Assembly (NCBI GenBank): GCA_033762795.1
Contig: JANRLH010000013.1
Coordinates: forward strand, 12,172 to 76,171
Origin: Pseudanabaenaceae cyanobacterium bins.68
GTDB lineage: Bacteria > Cyanobacteriota > Cyanobacteriia > Pseudanabaenales > Pseudanabaenaceae
Reading direction: 5' to 3'
DNA length: 64,000 nt
Shown here: piece by piece, positions 1 to 24,933 of the stretch
Position numbering within the stretch: position 1 is the stretch's first letter
How the letters are laid out: every line of letters starts with the position of its first letter
The notes under the pieces: model-generated
What the model saw: the letters and a program-made list of their open reading frames with translations, nothing else
What the model was told of the DNA's origin: nothing
Database searches by the model: none
Program-made: the position numbers and the translations under genes

Positions 1-546
1 AGTAGCCGCAAACTCAATCAAATCTGAGTTTGTGCATGGTGGTAAATCTTGGCCAATCGAAGGATTGCAGACTTGAGAATTGTTGTGCAGGCTTAAGAGC
101 ATGGCAATGATTTCCGTATGCTGCACTTCATGCTGGATCAGCCAAAACCACAGGCGGGCTTGACCATTGAGATCGGCTGGGGCAGCGATCGCCAAAAAAT
201 CTAATACCTGTTGGCGGACAAGCTGGCTGTACTCAATGATTTCGGGTAGGGGTGGCAGTTTAGTTCTGAGGTGTTTATCCCCAAAATCATTCATAAAATA
301 AGCCTGATATGCCTGGCTGAGATGGGGAGCATCAGGCAGCAACCAGAGGGCTTCCGTGTAGGCAATATGCCCCAAGTGCCAACCAATCGGGCTAAATTCA
401 GGATCTACCTGCAAGTTAAAAATTTGGGCGGCGGTCTCAGAGGCAAATAAGTTTAGGGTGTGGTGCCGTACTTGATCCAGTTGATCTTGCAACACCACCA
501 ACCAAGCACTGGGAGGAAACCCGTCTATGAAATAGCCTGGGATCAA
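1..546 (-). CDS. DinB-like/EgtB-family protein, N-terminal part (gene continues past the left edge)
   Basis: Edge-truncated, so absent from the ORF track. My minus-strand translation is open from 546 to 1: ..GYFIDGFPPSAWLVVLQDQLDQVRHHTLNLF..SPIGWHLGHIAYTEALWLL..LWFWLIQHEVQHTEIIAMLL.. The spaced His motifs resemble DinB_2 domains that precede the FGE-sulfatase domain in EgtB-type sulfoxide synthases. The only start candidate is TTG 546..544. Confidence 0.5.
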   Translation of the reverse strand, partial: MIPGYFIDGFPPSAWLVVLQDQLDQVRHHTLNLFASETAAQIFNLQVDPEFSPIGWHLGHIAYTEALWLLPDAPHLSQAYQAYFMNDFGDKHLRTKLPPLPEIIEYSQLVRQQVLDFLAIAAPADLNGQARLWFWLIQHEVQHTEIIAMLLSLHNNSQVCNPSIGQDLPPCTNSDLIEFAAT

Positions 547-845
547 AGGTCATCCTCCCAGCCACAACGGAGACAGCGCCACTGGAGCGGCGGCAGTTTG
601 AGGCGGGAAAACGGTAGGTCACAATCGGGGCATTTGCCCGTGAAAATTGGGTGCCAATCGTATTCTTCTAAACCCAAGTGGGGATAGTCCTGGAGGGATT
701 CTGGCTGCCAGAGTTCGGCAGTTTCAAAATCTAGACAGACTTGCTTTACTCCCAGGGGATGCACCGCACAGACGAGGTAGGGGCTGTGGGCATAGTAGCT
801 ACAGCGGTCGCACCAGGGCAGTTTGTTGAGCCTAGCGATTGCCAT
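543..845 (-). CDS. Cys-rich hypothetical protein with zinc-ribbon-like C-terminus
   Basis: 100-aa ORF with paired Cys motifs (CDRC; CPDC..17 aa..CLRC). There is a 2-nt gap to the upstream ORF (848), and its stop TGA 545..543 overlaps the TTG candidate start of the downstream DinB-like ORF, so it looks operonic. Confidence 0.55.
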   Translation of the reverse strand: MAIARLNKLPWCDRCSYYAHSPYLVCAVHPLGVKQVCLDFETAELWQPESLQDYPHLGLEEYDWHPIFTGKCPDCDLPFSRLKLPPLQWRCLRCGWEDDL

Positions 846-847
846 AG

Positions 848-2212
848 TTAGCTAAAACGCTTCAATTCCACGCCATTACTTAAAATTACCAGTTCTAACT
901 CCAAAGGGCTAGTAGTGTACACGGGCGATCGCGCGATCGCTTTAATCTCGTATTTGGTCTTGATTTGGCTAATCATGTCTAGGAGTTGATCCAAAGCGGT
1001 AGGGGAAAATGTCCCCACTGTGCGGGTGAGGGGATCTGCCAGCACTCCTTCGCGGGTAGCCCGCAGATTTGCCAGTTGAAATAGCCGTTGTAGCTGCGCT
1101 TCTACTTCAGCTTTAGTCAGATTGGGCGCAAAATTCAACGCCACAATTACCTGACCCTGGTTAAAAACCTGGCGATTGGGATTAACCTCAGCGTTGATGA
1201 ACACACTGGTTTCCCGCTTTAAAAAATTACCTGCTGCCTGAATCCGAATAGCATAGCTAGCGTCCCCTTTGATTTGGGCTTGCAGAGCGGCAATTTGGGC
1301 TTCAGTTACCTTGATTACCGGTTCTTGGGGCTGTTGATCTGGTAAAAAATCCAGCAGGCGGCGGGCAGTCTGATCAGCCTGCTGTAAAAGTTGATTGATC
1401 ACCTGTTGTAGTTCCCTGCCATTCAGCTTGGGTTTGGTTACACCCACTGCCAGAATCTGCTCCTTCCGAATAGCCACATCCCCTAAGCGCAGGTTTTGTA
1501 AGCTCAAGGCTAAGCGATCGCGCAGATTTTGCAGATCACTGAGATCAGCAAGTAGTTCTGTGCGCTGATTTTCTAGCTGATTAAACTTGATCTGAGCGGT
1601 CGCCACCTTCTGGCGTAACTCCGTTTGCGTCTGTTTACTCTGATCTAGACTTTGCAATAATCGCTGCTGGTCTGCGATCAGGCTATTTTTAGTATTGAGC
1701 AGGTTTTGTTGTTCAGCCTGAAGTGTCTGGTTGCGCTGGGCTAACTCCTGCTCCTTTTGCTGCACCTGGTCTAGCTCGGTTTGAATTTGATCCAAGCCGA
1801 TCGCTGCCTGACGTAGTTGAGCTTGGGTTTGGCTCTGTTGCAAAAGGGCCTGCACCCTCTGGCGGTTGGTCACATCTAGCTGCTGGCGGGCTTGGCTAAT
1901 CTGTTGCCGAGATTGGCTTAGCTCTTGCTCAGTCAGTTGTTTACGCGCCTGGGCTTCGGCAAGTTCAGTCCGAATCTGCTCTAGTTGAAATAGTCCTTGG
2001 CGCAGTTGACTGCTAGTTGCCAAAATTACTCCCAGGGTGGCAGCCGAGATCATGGCACCAGTAGCGATTGTCACTAGAGTAGCGGTTTTACGCGGGCGAA
2101 GATTAAAAATACTTAACCTTTTTTTGCCAATTTTTGATCCCAAGCGATCGCCCACAGTCGCAATTGTGCCACCCAGAAATAACACTGCCAGAATTAAAAT
2201 GTAGCCGTCCAT
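848..2212 (-). CDS. Membrane-anchored coiled-coil protein (DUF3084-like)
   Basis: The ORF track gives 848..2257. I prefer ATG 2212 (MDGYILILAVLFLGGTIATVGDRLG..) because AAGGAG sits just upstream (complement of 2215..2220). Two N-terminal hydrophobic segments are followed by a ~250-aa Q/L-rich heptad region (QLEQIRTELAEAQARKQLTEQELSQSRQQ..). The DUF3084 assignment is from memory. Confidence 0.75.
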   Translation of the reverse strand: MDGYILILAVLFLGGTIATVGDRLGSKIGKKRLSIFNLRPRKTATLVTIATGAMISAATLGVILATSSQLRQGLFQLEQIRTELAEAQARKQLTEQELSQSRQQISQARQQLDVTNRQRVQALLQQSQTQAQLRQAAIGLDQIQTELDQVQQKEQELAQRNQTLQAEQQNLLNTKNSLIADQQRLLQSLDQSKQTQTELRQKVATAQIKFNQLENQRTELLADLSDLQNLRDRLALSLQNLRLGDVAIRKEQILAVGVTKPKLNGRELQQVINQLLQQADQTARRLLDFLPDQQPQEPVIKVTEAQIAALQAQIKGDASYAIRIQAAGNFLKRETSVFINAEVNPNRQVFNQGQVIVALNFAPNLTKAEVEAQLQRLFQLANLRATREGVLADPLTRTVGTFSPTALDQLLDMISQIKTKYEIKAIARSPVYTTSPLELELVILSNGVELKRFS

Positions 2213-2392
2213 TACTCCTTGGTAACCTTTGGCTGATCTTAACATTCTTAAGACCAATCGCCTTGGAACAAAGAAGCTAAGCAGGACAGGGTTAATCTTT
2301 AACCCGGACTAGATTGGCACTTTGCCTCAAAAGCTATCATCAAGAAACACTTAGTTATGCTATCTTAATAGACCTATGAGTTTTTAAAAAAA

Positions 2393-2710
2393 ATGCCAAG
2401 AGCAAATATTCACCCCACTTGGTACCCTGATGCCAAGGTAATCTGCAACGGACAGGTTGTTGCGACAGTTGGCTCCACCAAGCCAGAGTTACAGGTTGAC
2501 CTCTGGTCGGGCAATCACCCTTTTTATACGGGCACCCAAAAGATCATCGACACCGAAGGGCGAGTAGAACGGTTCATGCGTAAATATGGCATGAGCAGCG
2601 CAGATATGCCCCAAATTCAAGAAGTGGGCTCGGCTCAAGCAGAATCTAAACCCGCACCAGTCGAAGCTCCTGCCCAAACTCCTGCTCAGAAAGGTAAGAA
2701 AAAAAAGTAA
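2393..2710 (+). CDS. rpmE: 50S ribosomal protein L31 with low-complexity C-terminal tail
   Basis: MPRANIHPTWYPDAKVICNGQVV..GNHPFYTGTQKIIDTEGRVERFMRKYG is the L31 core. It lies directly upstream of prfA, as is usual in cyanobacteria. Confidence 0.9.
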   Translation: MPRANIHPTWYPDAKVICNGQVVATVGSTKPELQVDLWSGNHPFYTGTQKIIDTEGRVERFMRKYGMSSADMPQIQEVGSAQAESKPAPVEAPAQTPAQKGKKKK

Positions 2711-2725
2711 TAGTTCTCTACCCCT

Positions 2726-3817
2726 ATGCCCGCGCCCTATCTGCTAGATAAGCTAAAATCTGTGGAACAAACCTTTCACGAGCTAACTCGGCGAATGGCT
2801 GATCCTGATGTAGCTGCCGACCATAGCGAGTTTCAGCGCATTGCCAAGCTGCGTTCCTCCCTAGAAGAAACGGTTAATACCTTTGAGCAGTTTCGCACGG
2901 CGGAAGTGCAACTTCAAGAAGCACAAGCTCTGGTTAAAGAAGCTGATGACCCAGAGCTTAAACAAATGGCAGTGGAAGAAGTTCAAACTTTAAATCAGCA
3001 ATTAGCAGAACTAGAAGAGCGGCTCAAGGTGATGCTACTACCCCAAGATCCCAATGATGAGAAAAATATCATGTTGGAAATTCGCGCGGGTACAGGTGGT
3101 GATGAGGCGAGTATCTGGGTTGCCGATCTGCTACGTTTGTACACTCGCTATGCTGAAAGCCAAGGGTGGCGAGTGAAATTGGTGAGTGAGTCTCCCGCTG
3201 ACTTGGGTGGCTACAAGGAAATTATTTTAGAAATTCAAGGCGATCGGGTCTACAGCAAGCTCAAGTTTGAATCTGGCGTACATCGAGTGCAGCGAGTACC
3301 AGCTACAGAAGCTTCTGGTCGAGTACACACCTCAACAGCAACCGTAGCAGTAATGCCTGAAGTAGATGCGGTAGAGATTCACATCGATCCCAAAGACATT
3401 GAAATGTCTACGGCTCGATCAGGCGGTGCAGGTGGGCAAAACGTCAATAAGGTGGAAACGGCCGCAGATCTTTTCCATAAGCCTACAGGAATTCGGATTT
3501 TCTGCACCGAAGAGCGATCGCAAATGCAAAACAAAGAGCGGGCAATGCAGATTCTGCGCGCTAAGCTGTACGAAATGAAACTGCGAGAGCAACAAGATCA
3601 AATCAGTTCCATGCGGAAGTCCCAAGTCGGAACTGGAGCTAGATCCGAGAAGATTCGTACCTACAACTACAAGGATAGTCGCCTCACTGATCACCGTCTG
3701 GGACAAAACTTCCCCTTGCCCCAAATCCTTTCTGGAGATGTGGATGAAGTAATTCAAAGCTGTATTGCTCAAGATCAAAAGGAAAGACTCCAGGAACTAG
3801 CGGCAGCAGGACCATAA
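2726..3817 (+). CDS. prfA: Peptide chain release factor 1
   Basis: GGQ motif ([15 protein letters not shown]), RF1-type PAT tripeptide (VQRVPATE), 363 aa. Confidence 0.95.
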
Positions 3818-3823
3818 ATAACT

Positions 3824-4555
3824 ATGCAGAATCTGGGTGAACAAATATACGAAGGCAAGGCTAAAATTCTTTACCGCACCCTTGATTCTAGGGTGATTTT
3901 AGTCAAGTATAAAGATGATGCCACCGCTTTTAATGCCCAAAAGCAAGGAAAAATTGCCCGTAAAGGTGAGCTTAACTGCGATATCACCCGACACCTGTTT
4001 AACTTTTTAGGTACCCAAGGCATTCCCCATCATTTTATCCGTCAGATTGCGTCTGATCAAATGGAAGTAGTAGCTACCCAGATCATTCCCATTGAGGTCG
4101 TGGTCAGAAATATTGCTGCAGGTAGCCTATCTAAGCGCCTGGGGATTGCCCAAGGTACAATTTTGAAGCGACCAATTGTTGAGTTCTACTACAAAGATGA
4201 TGCTTTGGGTGATCCCCTAATCAACGAAGAGCATATTGATATACTGGCATTGGCTACTCCTATGCAGGTAACACACCTAAAACAGCTAGCTCTAGAGATT
4301 AATCATCACTTGCAAACCTTTATGGATCGGTGTGAGCTAGATCTGGTAGATTTCAAGCTGGAGTTTGGCATAGATCATAACCAAGAAATCCTATTGGCAG
4401 ATGAGATTAGCCCTGATACTTGCCGACTCTGGGATATGCGTGAGACTGACCCTACAGCTAAAATTTTGGATAAGGATCGCTTTCGATTTGATCTAGGTGG
4501 TGTGGCAGAGTCTTATGCTGAAGTACATAGGCGAATTTTAGCTCAAGCCTTTTAG
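3824..4555 (+). CDS. purC: Phosphoribosylaminoimidazole-succinocarboxamide (SAICAR) synthase
   Basis: IYEGKAKILY.., KDDATAFNAQK.., LADEISPDTCRLWD, 243 aa. Confidence 0.93.
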   Translation: MQNLGEQIYEGKAKILYRTLDSRVILVKYKDDATAFNAQKQGKIARKGELNCDITRHLFNFLGTQGIPHHFIRQIASDQMEVVATQIIPIEVVVRNIAAGSLSKRLGIAQGTILKRPIVEFYYKDDALGDPLINEEHIDILALATPMQVTHLKQLALEINHHLQTFMDRCELDLVDFKLEFGIDHNQEILLADEISPDTCRLWDMRETDPTAKILDKDRFRFDLGGVAESYAEVHRRILAQAF

Positions 4556-13718: not shown

Positions 13719-14660
13719 GTGCAAATCTCAAGGGCATTACGCATCAATCGAGGCATAAGTCAGTACCAACCAGACTTTCAAGACTACTACGCCATCCTTG
13801 GGATTCCGGTCACTGCCACGGCTCAGCAGGTACGGAAGCGATACTTATCGATCGCCAAACACCTCCATCCCGATGTCTATGGTCGTCCTCCCGAAGAAAA
13901 AATCAAAGCTACTCGCTACTTTTCCCGTCTGGTCAACCCCGCCTACAGCACCCTCAATCAAGAACGGGAGCGGATTGAATACGCCGAAATCCTACGCCTT
14001 CTTGCCAAGCGTCTACTCAAGCGCAACGAACGCCTTGCCCCTCAGTCAGAAGCTGCCAAGAAACTGCTCTATTTTCCCAAAGAATTGCAGTATGACTACG
14101 AAAAGGCTGTACTAGCGATCGCCCAAATCCAGTACGAGCAGCTAGATCAAATCCTGGAACATATTGCCCAACTCAGCGAATTAAACCTAGTATTTGTATT
14201 GGTACGGGAAGGTTACCAACATTTCAATGCCGGACCTTCCACCCTGGGTCGCCCTGCCAGTTCTGGCAACACTAGCTTTGGTCAGCAGCCCCCCCGCCCA
14301 CCCAAACCACTCGAACGTCCGGCCAATTCAGCGGCACAACACATCACTATGGCCGAGCAGTTAGTAGCAGCCCAGCAATGGTCTTTGGCAATTCAAGAAC
14401 TCCGCGCCGCCCTGCAAATCGATCCCAATAGTAGTAAATCCCACGCCCTGCTTGGCTATGTCTATATGCAACGCAAACTTACCAGCATGGCAAAAAGTAG
14501 TTTCAAGCAAGCACTCAAACTCAACCCCAACGAGCCGCTTGCCAAAGAGAACTTTGCCAAACTCGAAGGACAGGAGCAGCCAGTTTCTAAGCCAGAGGCG
14601 AATAAAACTGCCACTAAAGACAAGAAAGGGGGATTCTTTGGTTGGCTGAGCGGATCTTAA
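13719..14660 (+). CDS. J-domain protein with C-terminal TPR region
   Basis: DYYAILGIPVTATAQQVRKRYLSIAKHLHPD (HPD tripeptide). C-terminal TPR-like AIQELRAALQIDPNSSKSHALLGYVYMQ..ALKLNPNEP. GTG start preceded by GGGGGA. Confidence 0.85.
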   Translation: MQISRALRINRGISQYQPDFQDYYAILGIPVTATAQQVRKRYLSIAKHLHPDVYGRPPEEKIKATRYFSRLVNPAYSTLNQERERIEYAEILRLLAKRLLKRNERLAPQSEAAKKLLYFPKELQYDYEKAVLAIAQIQYEQLDQILEHIAQLSELNLVFVLVREGYQHFNAGPSTLGRPASSGNTSFGQQPPRPPKPLERPANSAAQHITMAEQLVAAQQWSLAIQELRAALQIDPNSSKSHALLGYVYMQRKLTSMAKSSFKQALKLNPNEPLAKENFAKLEGQEQPVSKPEANKTATKDKKGGFFGWLSGS

Positions 14661-18105: not shown

Positions 18106-18846
18106 ATGAAAATCAACACCTGCCCTATCCTAATTTTTGATATTGATGGAGTGATTCGGGATGTATCCCAGTCCTATCGCCGTGCTTTAGCAGATACGGT
18201 AGAGCATTTTACTAACGGCGCTTATCGCCCAACTTCAGATCAAATTGATTGCTTGAAGGCTGAGGGGCTATGGAACAACGACTGGGAGGCGGCACGCGAG
18301 TTGGTAGGACGTTTTGCCCAAGAATTAGAACCTAGCCTGGCACAAATCATCCAGTTTTTTCAGCAGCGTTATCGGGGAGATGATTGGAATGGCTACATTC
18401 AAGCTGAAAAACTGCTAGTAAATTTAGCCTATTTTCAGCAACTAACCGCGGCTGGAATCAAATGGGGCTTTTTTAGTGGAGCGAGTCGAGACTCTGCTCG
18501 GTTTGTGCTGGATCGGGTAGGTCTAACACAGCCAGTGTTAGTGGCGATGGAAGATGCTCCCAGTAAGCCTGACCCTAGCGGCTTATGTAAAGCGATCGCT
18601 CTGTTAGAACCAGAGACAGTGGGGAGAAAGGTGATTTATGCGGGCGATACGGCGGCGGATATGATCACGGTGGTGCGAGCTAGGGAGTTGCTGCCCCAGG
18701 ATCAATTTTGGGCGGTTGGGGTGCTCCCCCCCCATGTGTTAGATAGAGCAAATTATGGCCAACTTTTACACGATCGCGGCGCTGATCTGGTGATAGATCA
18801 AATCATGCAACTTACACCTGGTTTAATCTTTGAGCTATTAGGGTAG
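18106..18846 (+). CDS. HAD-superfamily hydrolase
   Basis: Motif I ILIFDIDGVIRD, motif II FFSGASR, motif III/IV SKPDP..YAGDTAADM, 246 aa. Confidence 0.8.
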   Translation: MKINTCPILIFDIDGVIRDVSQSYRRALADTVEHFTNGAYRPTSDQIDCLKAEGLWNNDWEAARELVGRFAQELEPSLAQIIQFFQQRYRGDDWNGYIQAEKLLVNLAYFQQLTAAGIKWGFFSGASRDSARFVLDRVGLTQPVLVAMEDAPSKPDPSGLCKAIALLEPETVGRKVIYAGDTAADMITVVRARELLPQDQFWAVGVLPPHVLDRANYGQLLHDRGADLVIDQIMQLTPGLIFELLG

Positions 18847-21078
18847 AGACCAAACTTCATAGTTACCATCAATTTCGGTAAGAATCTGGCCACTGACTCT
18901 GCCAGGTAAGATAGTTACCCAGCGACGACTGCGATCGCCAGTAATTTCACTATAAATGACTTGACCTTCGCTGTTAAAAGCCACAATTGTCGGATAACGG
19001 CGATCGCCCATATCTACCTTCAGTCGATCTAGTTCTAGAACATAGTCTACTTTGCCATCACCACTGAGATCGATCGCTTTGAGATTCCAGCTACTGAATT
19101 GCCGCCTAAATTCTTCCCGCCGCAGAGAAACCTCCCCCAGACTTTGCAATTCCCCATATAGTTCACTACTCATGCGCTCCAAGATGGGCGTAGGCAAATT
19201 AATGGGGGTAGTATCAGTACCAGTAGTAGCAGGCAAAATCCCATTGGTAGTCACGATCGCTGGAATAGAACTCTCCCTGATCCCTTGGCTCACTTCTTTG
19301 CCGCCAGAGAGTAACAGCCTGAGCTTGCCAGTACTACTTACTGCATAGGAATGGGCACGGAGAAAGGCATTATTGCTTAAGCCTAAATTATCCTGAATCA
19401 AGAGGTTGAGGATGTTATTGCGCTTCAGATTCAGTAATTTCCATACTGCGACGGGCGATCGCCCCACCAATTCTGCAAAATTGCCACCTTGCCAAAGGTC
19501 TTGATCCAACATCAAGGTAATCTCAGCCACGTACCAGCTATCTGTCTCTGGTAGGGGTTCGGGGGGAATTGCCCAACCTGCACCTGGCTCTCGGCTAATC
19601 ACTGGCGTTACTGTGCCAAATAGCTGCTGAGGCTGAATTTTAAACGGGAACACATCCAACCGATTGATCAAGTCGATCGCTACAGATTGATCTCCACCTA
19701 GACCATTTAGCCATTTTTTTCCACCTTGCAGTCCCTGACTTGCCATCACCGCGATTGCCCCTGCCTGCTCCGCGATCGCCACATCATCTAGCTTGAGTTT
19801 CTGCACTAGTTCAACCCGACCCAGAATATTGGGTAGATAGGGTTTCACAGCCGCAAATACAGCCCGCGTGTTGGTTTCATTACTTTCCGCGATCGCGATC
19901 GCTCCTTGCCATTTGCCATCTAGCATTTGCAGCAGAGCTTGACGACCTGGATCTTTAGCCTGGGCAAACTGTTCACTCAATAGCTGAGCATGGGCAGCAA
20001 TCAGACCATGCTGTTCCCATACATAATTAGAAAATTCCTGAGACTGCGATCGCAACTCTATGCGAACTTGCTCAAGCCTAGTCAAAGCATCTGACCAGAG
20101 ACCGCCACTAGCCAACACCAGCGCTTGGGCGTAGGAATTGGGCATTCCCAGACCTTCATTCAAGGTGATTTGCCGCAAATCAATCGGCTGCTGGGGATTA
20201 GTAGTCAGTTCTGGTTGGTAGACTTCAAAATCTAACTCCAAATCTTGGTGCTGTTCTAAGATTAGTTGTGGGTCACGACCAGGCACCGCAGGCTTAGCTG
20301 GATCTCGTTCCAGAGTCCAAGCCGAGGCCAGTTGCAACAGGTTTTGCCAACGGGGGGGCTTCGGGCCACTCCATTCGGTCAGAATTGTTAGGGATGGACG
20401 CGGCTGAGCTACATAGCCCAACACCAAACCATACTCGGTTTTACCCCTAGTGCCACTGGCAATTAGCCATCTACCATACCTGGGAGCCTCGCCCTCAATT
20501 AACTGCAACTGCTTGAGTGGGAAACTCTCTCCCTTCAAGCTGACTTTACCTTGACCAAACCGCCGGCGGGGCTTCAGCACAAACCAGTCATCTAGGTTAT
20601 CTACCTCCACTCGACTAACTAGCTGCAGCTTTTTGGAATTAGGCCGAGTTTGGTAAGCTCTAATTTCCCGCATTTCTTGGCTAACTTGATCCAAAACTGG
20701 GTAAATCATAATTGGGTCAGCAGCACGCTGCCTTTGTCGATCTTCGCCAAAGTCTAATCCCTTACCTAGCACCCGCTCACTATCTTTAAGTTGGGCATTG
20801 ATTTCTTCGAGGGTGAGGGGAGGCTCCAAACCATAGGCAGGCAGACTGGGAGCCTCAGAAGAGACCAGCCAGTAAAAATTCACTGGATCAGTCAAGACTT
20901 TGAACGCCAAAAAAATCACCAAACCCAAGATGGGAATTGACAATAGCAATAGAGTACGGCTGACCGAAAAATTCAGGGATTGAAAAGTCTGAATAACTGG
21001 CTTGAACCCCAACCTTGACAACCTTTGAGCTGGATCAACTAAATCTGGGTCAGGCAGAATATCTTTCTGGGGGGGCAT
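18838..21078 (-). CDS. Large membrane-anchored hypothetical protein (746 aa) with FG-GAP-like C-terminus
   Basis: A long uninterrupted ORF. One N-terminal TM segment (TLLLLSIPILGLVIFLAFKVL). C-terminal DLSGDGKVDYVLELD is a Ca-binding FG-GAP/VCBS-like motif. The rest is unassigned. Confidence 0.7.
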   Translation of the reverse strand: MPPQKDILPDPDLVDPAQRLSRLGFKPVIQTFQSLNFSVSRTLLLLSIPILGLVIFLAFKVLTDPVNFYWLVSSEAPSLPAYGLEPPLTLEEINAQLKDSERVLGKGLDFGEDRQRQRAADPIMIYPVLDQVSQEMREIRAYQTRPNSKKLQLVSRVEVDNLDDWFVLKPRRRFGQGKVSLKGESFPLKQLQLIEGEAPRYGRWLIASGTRGKTEYGLVLGYVAQPRPSLTILTEWSGPKPPRWQNLLQLASAWTLERDPAKPAVPGRDPQLILEQHQDLELDFEVYQPELTTNPQQPIDLRQITLNEGLGMPNSYAQALVLASGGLWSDALTRLEQVRIELRSQSQEFSNYVWEQHGLIAAHAQLLSEQFAQAKDPGRQALLQMLDGKWQGAIAIAESNETNTRAVFAAVKPYLPNILGRVELVQKLKLDDVAIAEQAGAIAVMASQGLQGGKKWLNGLGGDQSVAIDLINRLDVFPFKIQPQQLFGTVTPVISREPGAGWAIPPEPLPETDSWYVAEITLMLDQDLWQGGNFAELVGRSPVAVWKLLNLKRNNILNLLIQDNLGLSNNAFLRAHSYAVSSTGKLRLLLSGGKEVSQGIRESSIPAIVTTNGILPATTGTDTTPINLPTPILERMSSELYGELQSLGEVSLRREEFRRQFSSWNLKAIDLSGDGKVDYVLELDRLKVDMGDRRYPTIVAFNSEGQVIYSEITGDRSRRWVTILPGRVSGQILTEIDGNYEVWSLP

Positions 21079-22510: not shown

Positions 22511-23308
22511 ATGGCTAGGGTCATAGCATTCACCAACAATAAAGGAGGCACTGGCAAATCCACCCTGTGTTCCAATTCAGCCCACATTGTTGCCAATAGC
22601 GGTGCCAGGGTACTGATTGTAGACTTAACTTCCCAAACCACCTGTACAACCCTATTCCTAGGCAGTGGTCATCAACTGAAGGAATCTGATACGGTGATGG
22701 CATTTTTGAAAAAGCGTCCAGATCGCCACCTAGAAGATTTAATTTTTGAAAGTGAAAAGGGCTTAGATATTGTGCCTGCTCACGTTTCCATGTCAGAGGC
22801 AGTAACCCAACTCTCGGCCATGCAGATGGGCAAAGAAACAGTGCTAAAACGAGAAGTTGATCGGGTGCTGCCCCATTATGACTACATATTCATTGATAGC
22901 CCTGGGGATTTGAACGAACTCACTGCCAATGCTCTGGTACCAGCCCATTTAGTTTTTATCCCAACTCGACTCAATCGCACTGATTTTCAATGTACAGAAA
23001 CCACCCTGCGCTTTATTAAAGAAGCAGAATCTTTTATTGGTGCTCGCACTGCCAGAGTGGTAATCAATATGTTGGATGATCGCTATTTACCTGGAGAGGC
23101 CTGGTCAACCTCTCATACGGGCGAACTATATCGCCAAGCCAAAATTGAGTTTGAGCAGATTTTGTGTGGCGTGACCATTCCCGATAGTGCTGATATTAGG
23201 ACTGCTTTTGATCGGGGGTTGACAATCGTAGAGCATCGACCACAGAGCTTGGCTACCAAACGAATTACCGCCTTCGTGGAAAGTGAGGTATTTAGTGAAC
23301 GAGTCTAA
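22511..23308 (+). CDS. ParA/MinD-family P-loop ATPase (orphan; McdA-like candidate)
   Basis: Deviant Walker A with signature Lys (FTNNKGGTGKSTL), A' box RVLIVDLTSQ, Walker B YDYIFIDSPGD, 265 aa. No MinD-type C-terminal amphipathic helix recognised. Confidence 0.9.
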   Translation: MARVIAFTNNKGGTGKSTLCSNSAHIVANSGARVLIVDLTSQTTCTTLFLGSGHQLKESDTVMAFLKKRPDRHLEDLIFESEKGLDIVPAHVSMSEAVTQLSAMQMGKETVLKREVDRVLPHYDYIFIDSPGDLNELTANALVPAHLVFIPTRLNRTDFQCTETTLRFIKEAESFIGARTARVVINMLDDRYLPGEAWSTSHTGELYRQAKIEFEQILCGVTIPDSADIRTAFDRGLTIVEHRPQSLATKRITAFVESEVFSERV

Positions 23309-24146
23309 TTTGGCGAAGGGGCTGTTTGGAGCTAAACCGAAAAAGTCGGGTCGCAAGGGGGGGAAGGCTGACCCAGAGATTACGCTCCCACTGTCACAAT
23401 CTCAGGCACAATCTCAGGCACAAGATCCCATATACCTAGCTGAGAGTTGTGAGAGTTCTGATCATAAGTCCAGTTCTGGCTGTGAGAATTTCTTGGCATA
23501 TACTGACAGTTGGGTTGAGCCTGGAGTTGGTCGTCAAACCCCCAAAAAGTCCACTAGAGTAAAGCCCAATCTCAATGCTGAGTTTAAGCCTAAACCTAAA
23601 CAGCCAGATGAGCAAGGGCATGAGCAAATCATGGTCACAGCTTTAGAAGCAGAGGTTAAGTTATTAAAGCTGGAGTTGGTGCAAAAGCAGCAAGTTGAGC
23701 AGCAACTACGGCAGCAAAATCAACAGATGCAGCTAGAGTTGGAAGCCAAACAAGCCAGTCTGATGATGTTGCAGCGATCGCTCCAGGAAGTAACTGCCCA
23801 GCTAGATCAACCCAGCGATCGACTAGTTGAGTTGGAGTCCCAGGTGGTAGAGTTGCAGGAGCAGGTTCTAAAACAGGCGGGGCAAGCGGCAGAGTATGAG
23901 GCAGCCATTCAACACTGGAAAGAGCAATCTTTACATCACCAGCGCCATGCTCTCCAACTGAGTGGCGCTCTAGAGCGGCTGATGGATGAGCAGAAGAGCG
24001 GCAAGCGCACTACTAAGCTAGAAAAAGAGTTGGCGAATTTCGCTCCCAATGGGCCTAAACCTCTAGCCGAGCCTGAGGAAACCAAGCCCAGTGGCAAGGT
24101 GAATTTGCCTTCTTTCCTGATGCGCCAACGTCCCGCCTTGAGTTAA
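23283..24146 (+). CDS. Q-rich coiled-coil partner protein of the ParA-like ATPase (McdB-like architecture)
   Basis: The ORF-track start is GTG 23283, a 26-nt overlap with the ATPase gene. In-frame alternatives are GTG 23295 and TTG 23310, which begins 1 nt after the ATPase stop at 23308. Basic N-terminal peptide GAKPKKSGRKGGK, ~115 aa of low complexity, a ~120-aa heptad Q-rich segment (KQQVEQQLRQQNQQMQLELEAKQ..), and a Pro/Lys-rich tail. Confidence 0.75.
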   Translation: MRYLVNESNLAKGLFGAKPKKSGRKGGKADPEITLPLSQSQAQSQAQDPIYLAESCESSDHKSSSGCENFLAYTDSWVEPGVGRQTPKKSTRVKPNLNAEFKPKPKQPDEQGHEQIMVTALEAEVKLLKLELVQKQQVEQQLRQQNQQMQLELEAKQASLMMLQRSLQEVTAQLDQPSDRLVELESQVVELQEQVLKQAGQAAEYEAAIQHWKEQSLHHQRHALQLSGALERLMDEQKSGKRTTKLEKELANFAPNGPKPLAEPEETKPSGKVNLPSFLMRQRPALS

Positions 24147-24243: not shown

Positions 24244-24933
24244 ATGAATGTAGAAGAGACTTTACCTAATTCTGATCAAAATTTTAGTGAGGTAGATTTA
24301 GAGGAAATTCGGGATGAAGATGAGATTGAGCTAGAAAATTCTCTCCAACAACTGGCGGAACAAACCGAGTCTGCTCCAGAAAATCAACCTGTGCAACCAG
24401 ATCAGCCTGTACCTACTCAAACTGCCCCAGACCTGAATCATTTGGCAAAGATTGAAGCGCTGATTTCGGAGTCGGTGGGGTTGCGGGCGCAGCTAGATGA
24501 TCGACAAGCCCAGTATGCTAGGCTCTACGCTGATTTTGAAAATTTCCGCAAGCGCACCCTCAGGGAAAAGGAAGAAGAGGAGGAAAAGAACACCAGCAAA
24601 ATCTTGAAAAAATTTCTGCCTGTGGTAGATGATTTTGAGCGGGCTAAATTGCAGATTAAGCCTAAAACTGACGCGGAAGCTAATATTCACAATAGCTATC
24701 AGTCGGTGTATAAGCAGTTGGTGAAGTGCTTACAGGAGGTGGGCTTGGTGCGAATGGAAACGGTGGGTCAAGAGTTCGATCCAAATTTGCATGAAGCGAT
24801 CGCTCAAGAACCAACCAGTGAATTTGCTGAGGGTGCAGTCATGGCTGAGTTACGCTCCGGCTTTTTGTTGGCAGATAAGGTGTTACGCCATGCGCTAGTG
24901 AAGGTAGCAGCCGCACCTAGTGAGGAGAGCTAG
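24244..24933 (+). CDS. grpE: Nucleotide exchange factor GrpE
   Basis: QYARLYADFENFRKRTLREKEE and C-terminal GQEFDPNLHEAIAQE..VLRHALVKV, 229 aa. Confidence 0.93.
   Translation: MNVEETLPNSDQNFSEVDLEEIRDEDEIELENSLQQLAEQTESAPENQPVQPDQPVPTQTAPDLNHLAKIEALISESVGLRAQLDDRQAQYARLYADFENFRKRTLREKEEEEEKNTSKILKKFLPVVDDFERAKLQIKPKTDAEANIHNSYQSVYKQLVKCLQEVGLVRMETVGQEFDPNLHEAIAQEPTSEFAEGAVMAELRSGFLLADKVLRHALVKVAAAPSEES

Follow-up and report, generated by a model that had tools for sequence, protein, structure and literature searches.

A conserved ParA-type ATPase and coiled-coil partner of cyanobacteria, with an FtsZ-tail-like motif at the C terminus of the partner

A 64,000-nucleotide stretch of DNA from Pseudanabaenaceae cyanobacterium bins.68 (contig JANRLH010000013.1, positions 12,172 to 76,171; hereafter the window, numbered from its first letter) carries two overlapping genes on its forward strand, one for a ParA/MinD-superfamily ATPase (ORF1, 22511..23308, 265 amino acids; MDX1976276.1, 'ParA family protein') and one for a coiled-coil protein that we assign as its adaptor (ORF2, 23295..24146, 283 amino acids). 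We find that this pair is very probably a real, conserved ParA–adaptor module, a type of system that the searched literature does not describe; it recurs in many genomes, at least 12 of them distinct, and so is not a chance arrangement. The adaptor ends in a short motif that matches the C-terminal peptide of FtsZ, and we put forward tentatively, as a reading that falls somewhat short of probable, that it docks onto the proteins that receive the FtsZ tail, namely ZipN, SepF and MinC, the cargo being deduced from this resemblance. An initial annotation, made from the DNA letters alone, had taken the pair for a cargo-positioning module, either a divergent McdAB pair or one serving another cargo. 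The idea of a cognate ParA–partner pair holds, both through its recurrence and through the co-variation of the partner's N terminus with ParA, while the McdAB assignment does not fit the published criteria.

ORF1 possesses each of the motifs originally ascribed to it. A deviant Walker A of the form xKGGxxK[ST] (NNKGGTGKST, residues 9–18, 22535..22564), which includes the signature lysine at position 11, is followed by a Walker A′ region (RVLIVDLTSQ, residues 33–42, 22607..22636) and a Walker B (YIFID, residues 125–129, 22883..22897), a combination that places the protein in the ParA/MinD superfamily. Alignment to ParA proteins in the Protein Data Bank (PDB) shows D-L-T-S-Q in the A′ region where Soj has D-x-D-P-Q, a substitution that had been pointed out at the start and is genuine. 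Pfam AAA_31 matches at 3.7e-31, CbiA and MipZ match as well, and the score against the NCBIfam ParA_partition model (94 bits), which covers chromosomal and plasmid ParA, lies far below its curated cutoff of 180. The AlphaFold2 model (predicted local distance difference test, pLDDT, 92.9) adopts a Soj/MinD-type fold, for which Foldseek returned chromosomal Soj/ParA proteins as the nearest structures (template modelling score 0.86–0.90, 22–27% identity, E = 1e-22 to 1e-18), followed by orphan mycobacterial ParA-like proteins, the McdA of Cyanothece (18% identity), and then MinD and FlhG. ORF1 has no MinD-like amphipathic end, which points to a putative nucleoid-binding ParA.

The relatives of ORF1 form a coherent and apparently undescribed clade of 58 clusters at E<1e-30, in which identity falls smoothly to 48% and then stops, and whose members are 258–270 amino acids long. 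K11, G12–G15, K16, S17 and T18 of the Walker A are without variation across the clade, as are Y123, D124 and D129 in the region of the Walker B. The A′ substitution is retained throughout as D-[LM]-T-[SP]-Q, with D38, T40 and Q42 invariant, and further invariant motifs are specific to the clade (NRTDFxCTE, MLDDRY and IPDSxDIRTAFDRG). No named isolate of Pseudanabaena sensu stricto is among the matches to this clade.

Two start codons had been suggested for ORF2, GTG 23283 and TTG 23310. Both exist, but the conserved start is GTG 23295, since every homologue begins [MV]-x-E-S-N-L, which corresponds to this codon in the window, and the 283-residue NCBI model agrees; a GAGG Shine–Dalgarno-like element lies within the 3′ end of ORF1 (23285..23288) at a spacing of 6 nt. 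The two genes therefore overlap by 14 nt. The first 25 residues of ORF2 contain 28% Lys and Arg, and about 80 residues of low complexity and a helical region of 129 residues with 21% Gln follow, so that composition and AlphaFold2 together confirm the overlapping gene, basic N terminus, low complexity and Gln-rich helices of the original description. At the N terminus, a candidate ParA-interaction peptide, NESNLAKGLF, precedes the basic run GAKPKKSGRKGGK (23298..23366), with a short helix predicted at NLAKGLF. The disordered linker beyond it (23367..23609) is poorly conserved, with pLDDT values of 42–53 and a variable alignment. The Gln-rich coiled-coil region (23610..23996) is predicted as two long helices with pLDDT above 90; in the model, which was built with 23 homologues and is numbered from GTG 23283, these span residues 110–175 and 179–238, with disorder through residue 109. 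Within it lies the block that defines the family, ELQEQVLKQAGQAAEYEAAIQHWKEQSLHHQRHALQLSGALERL (23835..23981), made up of invariant or near-invariant alignment columns. Outside of the helices pLDDT is below 55, and the tail is disordered. This tail is rich in Pro and Lys and ends, as first reported, in FLMRQRPALS without a Trp. Its description as a Pro/Lys tail is correct for composition but passed over the short motif that the family conserves most strongly, K-V-N-L-P-S-F-L-M-R-Q-R in the window (24096..24131), which matches the FtsZ C-terminal peptide. Of the kinds of search proposed at the outset, that by structure placed ORF1 nearest to Soj/ParA, with McdA and MinD lower; ORF2 gave no match to any Pfam or NCBIfam family and none by Foldseek.

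In a scan with one genome per species, relatives of ORF2 were encoded at 77 loci, and an orthologue of ORF1 (62–86% identity) lies directly upstream in nine of these 77. Altogether, a ParA gene sits immediately 5′ of an ORF2 homologue, with an overlap of 4–14 nt, in the window and at loci L001, L002, L004, L013, L016, L021, L027, L036, L079, L082 and L086; the overlap is 4–8 nt in the homologous pairs outside the window. Three of these genomes come in addition to the nine of the scan. The pair of Thalassoporum mexicanum PCC 7367 encodes proteins of 263 and 399 amino acids with an 8-nt overlap, that of Leptolyngbya sp. FACHB-261 proteins of 263 and 576 amino acids, and Tumidithrix helvetica has the pair in the same arrangement. 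The initial proposal had hinged on conserved ORF2 homologues lying beside ParA genes, and such homologues are indeed found there. The flanking genes vary among loci, so that conservation is limited to the pair itself, and no third gene is conserved beside it in the loci compared. One of the contigs (L004, CALRKB020000012.1) is titled as a 'Rhizobium sp. Q54' metagenome-assembled genome (MAG) and yet carries a cyanobacterial pair with 73% identity to ORF1; its protein cluster is named for Pseudanabaena sp. SU_2_4, and the contig is probably mis-binned.

[quoted passage not shown] The motif xESNLA[R/K]SLF, scored as E-[SRA]-[NSH]-L-[ATV]-x-x-[LFI]-[FWL], is present in 10 of 11 ParA-linked loci and in none of the 65 ParA-less loci that have enough upstream sequence to judge it (Fisher p = 1e-11, a value that ignores shared ancestry). 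The sole ParA-linked exception is L036 of Oscillatoriales SM2_1_8 (L036:9094-10576), which looks frameshifted: the partner reading frame departs from that of the family and both termini are unrelated to it, a frameshift in a MAG of low coverage being the probable cause. Two ParA-linked partners (L021 and L027) retain the hydrophobic pattern but have no Arg or Lys, and the basic residue of the motif is therefore not universal. About 39% of the full-length representatives of the ORF2 family open with a degenerate M-S-E-P-N/D-L form that contains no basic residues. In Pseudanabaena sensu stricto, where the 10 kb around the ORF2 homologue contain no ParA gene, the aligned stretch is acidic (VNDDDELDALL) and stands behind an N-terminal extension. 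A short, conserved N-terminal peptide with basic residues, in a protein encoded next to its ATPase, is what is seen in the activating partners of ParA/MinD proteins. In McdB the peptide comprises residues 1–20 with K7. In PomX it comprises residues 1–22 with K13 and R15, and Spo0J, SopB and MinE are alike in this respect (PMC7993993). By analogy with these partners, the N-terminal peptide of ORF2 is a candidate for the site that interacts with ORF1.

The most distant members of the ORF1 clade are those of Thermostichales and of a related MAG, where a short partner of 159–176 amino acids comes after the ParA gene and overlaps it by 4–8 nt (L084, L085 and L088); a further ORF1-clade gene (L087) has no adjoining partner. 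The Thermostichales partner opens with T-G/D-x-D/H-R-S-L-F-S and a basic run, continues with a Gln-rich coiled coil and ends in ..MPPYLLD or ..MPAFLLD. It shares the N-terminal motif of the ORF2 type in the form of RSLFS with a basic run, and although it has no central block its tail still reads D/K-M-P-x-F/Y-L-L-D. The two proteins align colinearly, with a similarity that is not significant.

ORF2 belongs to a wider cyanobacterial family that the initial annotation had overlooked, mostly without an adjoining ParA. When 1.84 billion representative proteins were searched with a profile of the last 127 residues of ORF2, its signal driven by the conserved block, 190 clusters were recovered at E<=0.001. 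Its named members are all labelled 'hypothetical' or carry a generic coiled-coil label, a literature search for their locus tags and for DUF5340 (see below) found nothing, and the family, which is restricted to cyanobacteria, is apparently undescribed. Most members have no ParA gene in the 10 kb around them. The family gene of Leptolyngbyales-like, Elainellales-like and Alkalinema-like genomes instead comes after lpdA, trpC and a small DUF5340 gene; the latter is directly upstream of ParA-less family genes in ten loci (L050:1706-1978 and nine others). In Leptolyngbya FACHB-261 the order is DUF5340 (L086:5586-5903), ParA, partner, so that ParA-linked and ParA-less genes appear to share one locus, which suggests a single ancestral locus where a ParA gene was gained or lost. 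The ParA-linked form is known from Thermostichales, Pseudanabaenales and one Leptolyngbya strain. Thermostichales and Pseudanabaenales are early-branching cyanobacterial lineages, and if this placement holds the ParA-linked form may be the ancestral one.

Across the family the C terminus is remarkably constant. P-x-F-L occurs within 30 residues of the end in 232 of 251 members (~92%), with a median of nine residues from the Pro to the end, and the consensus of the tail is K-V-D-L-P-x-F-L-x-R-x-R. Counting from the Pro (100%), position −4 is Lys in 66%, −3 is Val, Ile or Leu in 90%, −2 is Asp or Glu in 93% and −1 is Leu in 92% (Ile or Val in 7%); downstream, +2 is Phe in 100%, +3 Leu in 99%, +5 Arg or Lys in 90% and +7 Arg in 81%, and an Arg-rich extension often follows the motif. 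Members from Thermosynechococcaceae and Acaryochloridaceae (P0289, P0302 and P0307; loci L048, L055, L058, L060, L061, L063, L066–L068 and L072) keep the conserved block and have L-P-x-F-L swapped for ..L-S/T-P-R/K-E-L-L-G-x-R-x-x-x-x-x-F.

The near-invariant residues of this tail align with I374, P375, F377 and L378 of FtsZ. The cyanobacterial FtsZ of Fischerella and Chlorogloeopsis ends in LDIPDFLRKRTPPRN (PMC7714070), and the FtsZ tail of Bacillus subtilis is DIPTFLRNRNKRG. ORF2-family tails such as KLDLPDFLMRRRSYKTRR, HDIPEFLLRRRNYRP and LDVPDFLMRRRNHWAR show the core and the basic end as in FtsZ, and LDLPDFLMRRRSYKTRR is the end of another member. The family logo has the form of a docking peptide, that is, a C-terminal D/E-[ILV]-P-x-F-L with basic residues, for which the window copy reads N-L-P-S-F-L-M-R-Q-R. 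What the tails share with FtsZ is the D/E-hydrophobic-P-x-F-L core and the basic residues at the extreme C terminus, after a disordered linker; in ORF2, however, these are carried by a coiled-coil protein that lacks a tubulin/GTPase domain. Among 5,893 six-frame segments (1.32 Mb of cyanobacterial DNA from the examined loci), the strict pattern [DE][ILV]P.[FY][LIM].[RK] was found 66 times, 65 of which are C termini of the family. In plants the tail of FtsZ2 binds ARC6 and PARC6, and ZipN/Ftn2 is the cyanobacterial relative of ARC6.

From these observations we propose how the module might work. ORF1 would be a Soj-like ATPase whose ATP-bound dimer most likely coats the nucleoid, and ORF2 its dedicated adaptor and ATPase-activating protein. 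The N-terminal helix of ORF2 and the basic run behind it would contact the ParA dimer and set off hydrolysis of ATP and release, a step suggested by the co-variation with ParA and by the way in which other partners of the ATPase family work. The Gln-rich coiled coil, judging from the predicted structure, would make the adaptor oligomeric, while the cargo would be bound by the conserved block of the C-terminal part together with the K-V-D-L-P-x-F-L-x-R-x-R peptide at the end. As the tail reproduces the D-I/V-P-x-F-L core and basic end of FtsZ, the most likely cargo is the group of cyanobacterial proteins to which that tail normally binds, namely ZipN/Ftn2 (ARC6-like), SepF and MinC. The module could in this way tie the choice of division site to the nucleoid, either by marking mid-nucleoid, as PomXYZ does, or by competing with FtsZ for its tethers over the nucleoid. 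In its most specific form, in which nucleoid-bound ParA moves or holds an oligomeric adaptor that mimics the FtsZ tail and captures, or competes for, MinC or the Z-ring membrane tethers ZipN and SepF, the proposal is a doubtful one.

[quoted passage not shown] Comparing the architectures by description only, the ParA is of the same nucleoid type and the partner has the same layout. The cyanobacterial pair differs in that it has no apparent relationship to PomXYZ by sequence, in that it comprises two genes, with no PomY, and in that its proposed link to division would run through an FtsZ-tail-like peptide, which is absent from PomX.

Several observations weigh against a division-linked role. 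The match to the FtsZ tail spans only about 10 residues, and family members mostly have a hydrophobic residue (Val in 51%) next after F-L, where FtsZ has Arg. The window copy itself has Asn at −2 in place of the consensus Asp or Glu. A profile of the tail recovered no FtsZ from the PDB in a search that was underpowered, the top match being a chance one within Plasmodium uS4 (E = 0.17); FtsZ constructs in the PDB probably often end before the tail. The Thermostichales tail, in which the fourth residue counted from the end is aromatic and those around it are acidic, is also like the Tyr/Phe tails of McdB-like proteins. Since most members of the family have no adjoining ParA, its core role does not need an ORF1-type ATPase. 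Of about 12 loci, just 2 have division genes near the pair, a number without significance. Lastly, no solved ParA matches the C-terminal half of ORF1 significantly by sequence. It is conceivable, albeit with a probability that we would call low to middling, that the module positions another cargo altogether, such as a storage granule, a thylakoid or membrane site, or the adaptor's own condensate, and that what the L-P-x-F-L tail and EYEAAIQHWKEQ block bind has nothing to do with the receptors of the FtsZ tail. The evidence for a module, that is, gene adjacency and N-terminal co-variation, would serve such a cargo equally well; the FtsZ likeness is that of a short motif lacking statistical power, the strongly conserved block of about 50 residues has no known counterpart, and the lack of a conserved third gene fits this alternative too. 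What speaks for the FtsZ-tail reading over it is that the invariant residues of the tail coincide one for one with the critical residues of the FtsZ tail and are followed by a basic end as in FtsZ, and that the pattern is otherwise nearly absent from the six-frame translation described above.

That the pair is instead a divergent McdAB, which would position carboxysomes in early-branching cyanobacteria with the Phe or Tyr of the tail in the role of the McdB Trp, appears unlikely. Type 2 McdA proteins have 202–253 residues, the signature lysine, GKTTT (two extra Thr after the Walker A) and a double Trp beside the Walker A′, and McdB opens with a charged N terminus, has a Gln-rich coiled coil at its centre and carries an invariant Trp among its last four residues (PMC7182216). 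The pair shares with Type 2 McdAB the cyanobacterial host, the signature lysine, the adjoining partner gene and the layout of the partner (charged N terminus, Gln-rich coiled coil and high disorder). Of the McdA marks, however, ORF1 has the lysine only: it reads GKSTLCS in place of GKTTT, its single Trp is at residue 198, it is longer, as is the whole clade, which stands apart as a clade of its own, and its model is nearer to Soj than to the solved McdA. A Trp in the last four residues occurs in one of 251 family members, and ORF2 itself ends in RPALS. Non-Trp aromatics can partly replace the McdB Trp, and McdB-like proteins of other microcompartments have Tyr or Phe in the last five residues (10.1101/2023.11.21.568049); since the Thermostichales tails resemble these, a carboxysome role keeps some probability. 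By the published criteria, McdAB was missing from about 14% of beta-cyanobacterial genomes. Against this, the Phe of ORF2-type tails is at least six residues from the end and lies in a basic rather than an acidic tail, and a search with the Thermostichus partner matched Thermostichales proteins only, offering no bridge to McdB. McdAB is found near carboxysome genes in about 31% of genomes (ccmK3/K4 in about 25%), whereas tblastn found no ccmK or rbcL in the window or within 10 kb at 88 related loci, using hand-typed queries and no positive control, and the Pfam scan of the window contained no carboxysome genes. The main texts of the McdAB papers make no mention of Pseudanabaena or Thermostichus. 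The pair resembles McdAB in its broad way of working, yet should not be classed with it.

More improbable still is a DNA-segregation pair in which ORF2 would be a non-canonical, centromere-binding analogue of ParB that contacts DNA through its Arg-rich end. Soj/ParA with Spo0J/ParB supplies the best structural match for ORF1 and a partner that likewise acts through an N-terminal peptide. The N-terminal peptide of ParB has the form LG(R/K)GL..AL(F/L), which NLAKGLF (L-A-R-S-L-F in relatives) loosely recalls, and many family tails are rich in Arg. On the other hand, ORF1 scores below the chromosomal ParA model, has D-L-T-S-Q and a C-terminal half that is not recognisable by sequence, and has no parB beside it in the 64-kb window. 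ORF2 bears no detectable helix-turn-helix, ribbon-helix-helix or ParB-N domain in Pfam or NCBIfam, in line with the initial report of no ParB motif, and its tail in the window is just weakly basic. No parS-like or plasmid context was found, all of the neighbours being housekeeping genes, and most members of the family are not adjoined by ParA.

ATPases of the ParA/MinD type position many cargos, with the partner protein setting which. If the ORF2 tail engages ZipN, SepF or MinC, the module would connect the nucleoid to the placement of the cyanobacterial Z ring in a new way, and would be relevant by descent to chloroplast division, in which ARC6 and PARC6 read the FtsZ2 tail. Should the adaptor truly mimic FtsZ, this would amount to a previously unrecognised mechanism of division-site placement or nucleoid occlusion by molecular mimicry, and the ParA-less members would constitute a new class of Z-ring-associated proteins across filamentous cyanobacteria. 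Were the cargo something else, the pair would still be a new ParA positioning system. Two peptides are available for testing, an N-terminal one that should activate the ATPase and a C-terminal one that should compete with the FtsZ tail.

The surroundings of the pair are those of an ordinary chromosome, with psbD, psbC, prfA, uvrC, chlL, comEC and others as neighbours. In agreement with the initial annotation, which saw no min, carboxysome or plasmid genes nearby, a scan of all window ORFs of at least 130 amino acids revealed no min, parB, carboxysome, plasmid or phage genes, and PADLOC gave just P-loop and coiled-coil noise, so that a defence system was dismissed. Elsewhere, the Pseudanabaenaceae MAG MP8IB2.15 (L002) has minC-minD (394-2162, minus strand) divergent from the pair (2322-4014) across a 159-bp intergenic region, the one locus at which these genes abut it, and Tumidithrix helvetica has a ZipN/ARC6-type gene (L082:1-367), its domains being DnaJ, ARC6 and ARC6-like_IMS, at a distance of about 7 kb upstream from its pair; both are faint hints at a link to division. 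None of the examined loci contains an ftsZ gene. Within the window, grpE is the next gene but one after ORF1 and is not linked to the pair at any other locus; it is on the plus strand, ends at 24933 and overlaps by 17 nt (24917-24933) a convergent CCA-adding/poly(A) polymerase-family gene on the minus strand that ends at 24917. An ORF of 746 amino acids with no Pfam family (18838-21078, minus strand), two genes upstream of the pair, was considered as a third component and set aside, as other genomes do not keep it next to the pair. The window also encodes a 469-residue protein with an N-terminal DUF3084 and no other recognised family (848-2257, minus strand). Some 8 kb upstream of the pair lies a gene for a DnaJ and tetratricopeptide-repeat (TPR) protein of 313 amino acids (13719-14660, plus strand), which is not ZipN, the latter being much longer and containing ARC6 domains; a similar DnaJ/TPR gene is located about 3.5 kb from the ORF2 homologue of Pseudanabaena sp. 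Chao 1811 (L081:12696-13826).

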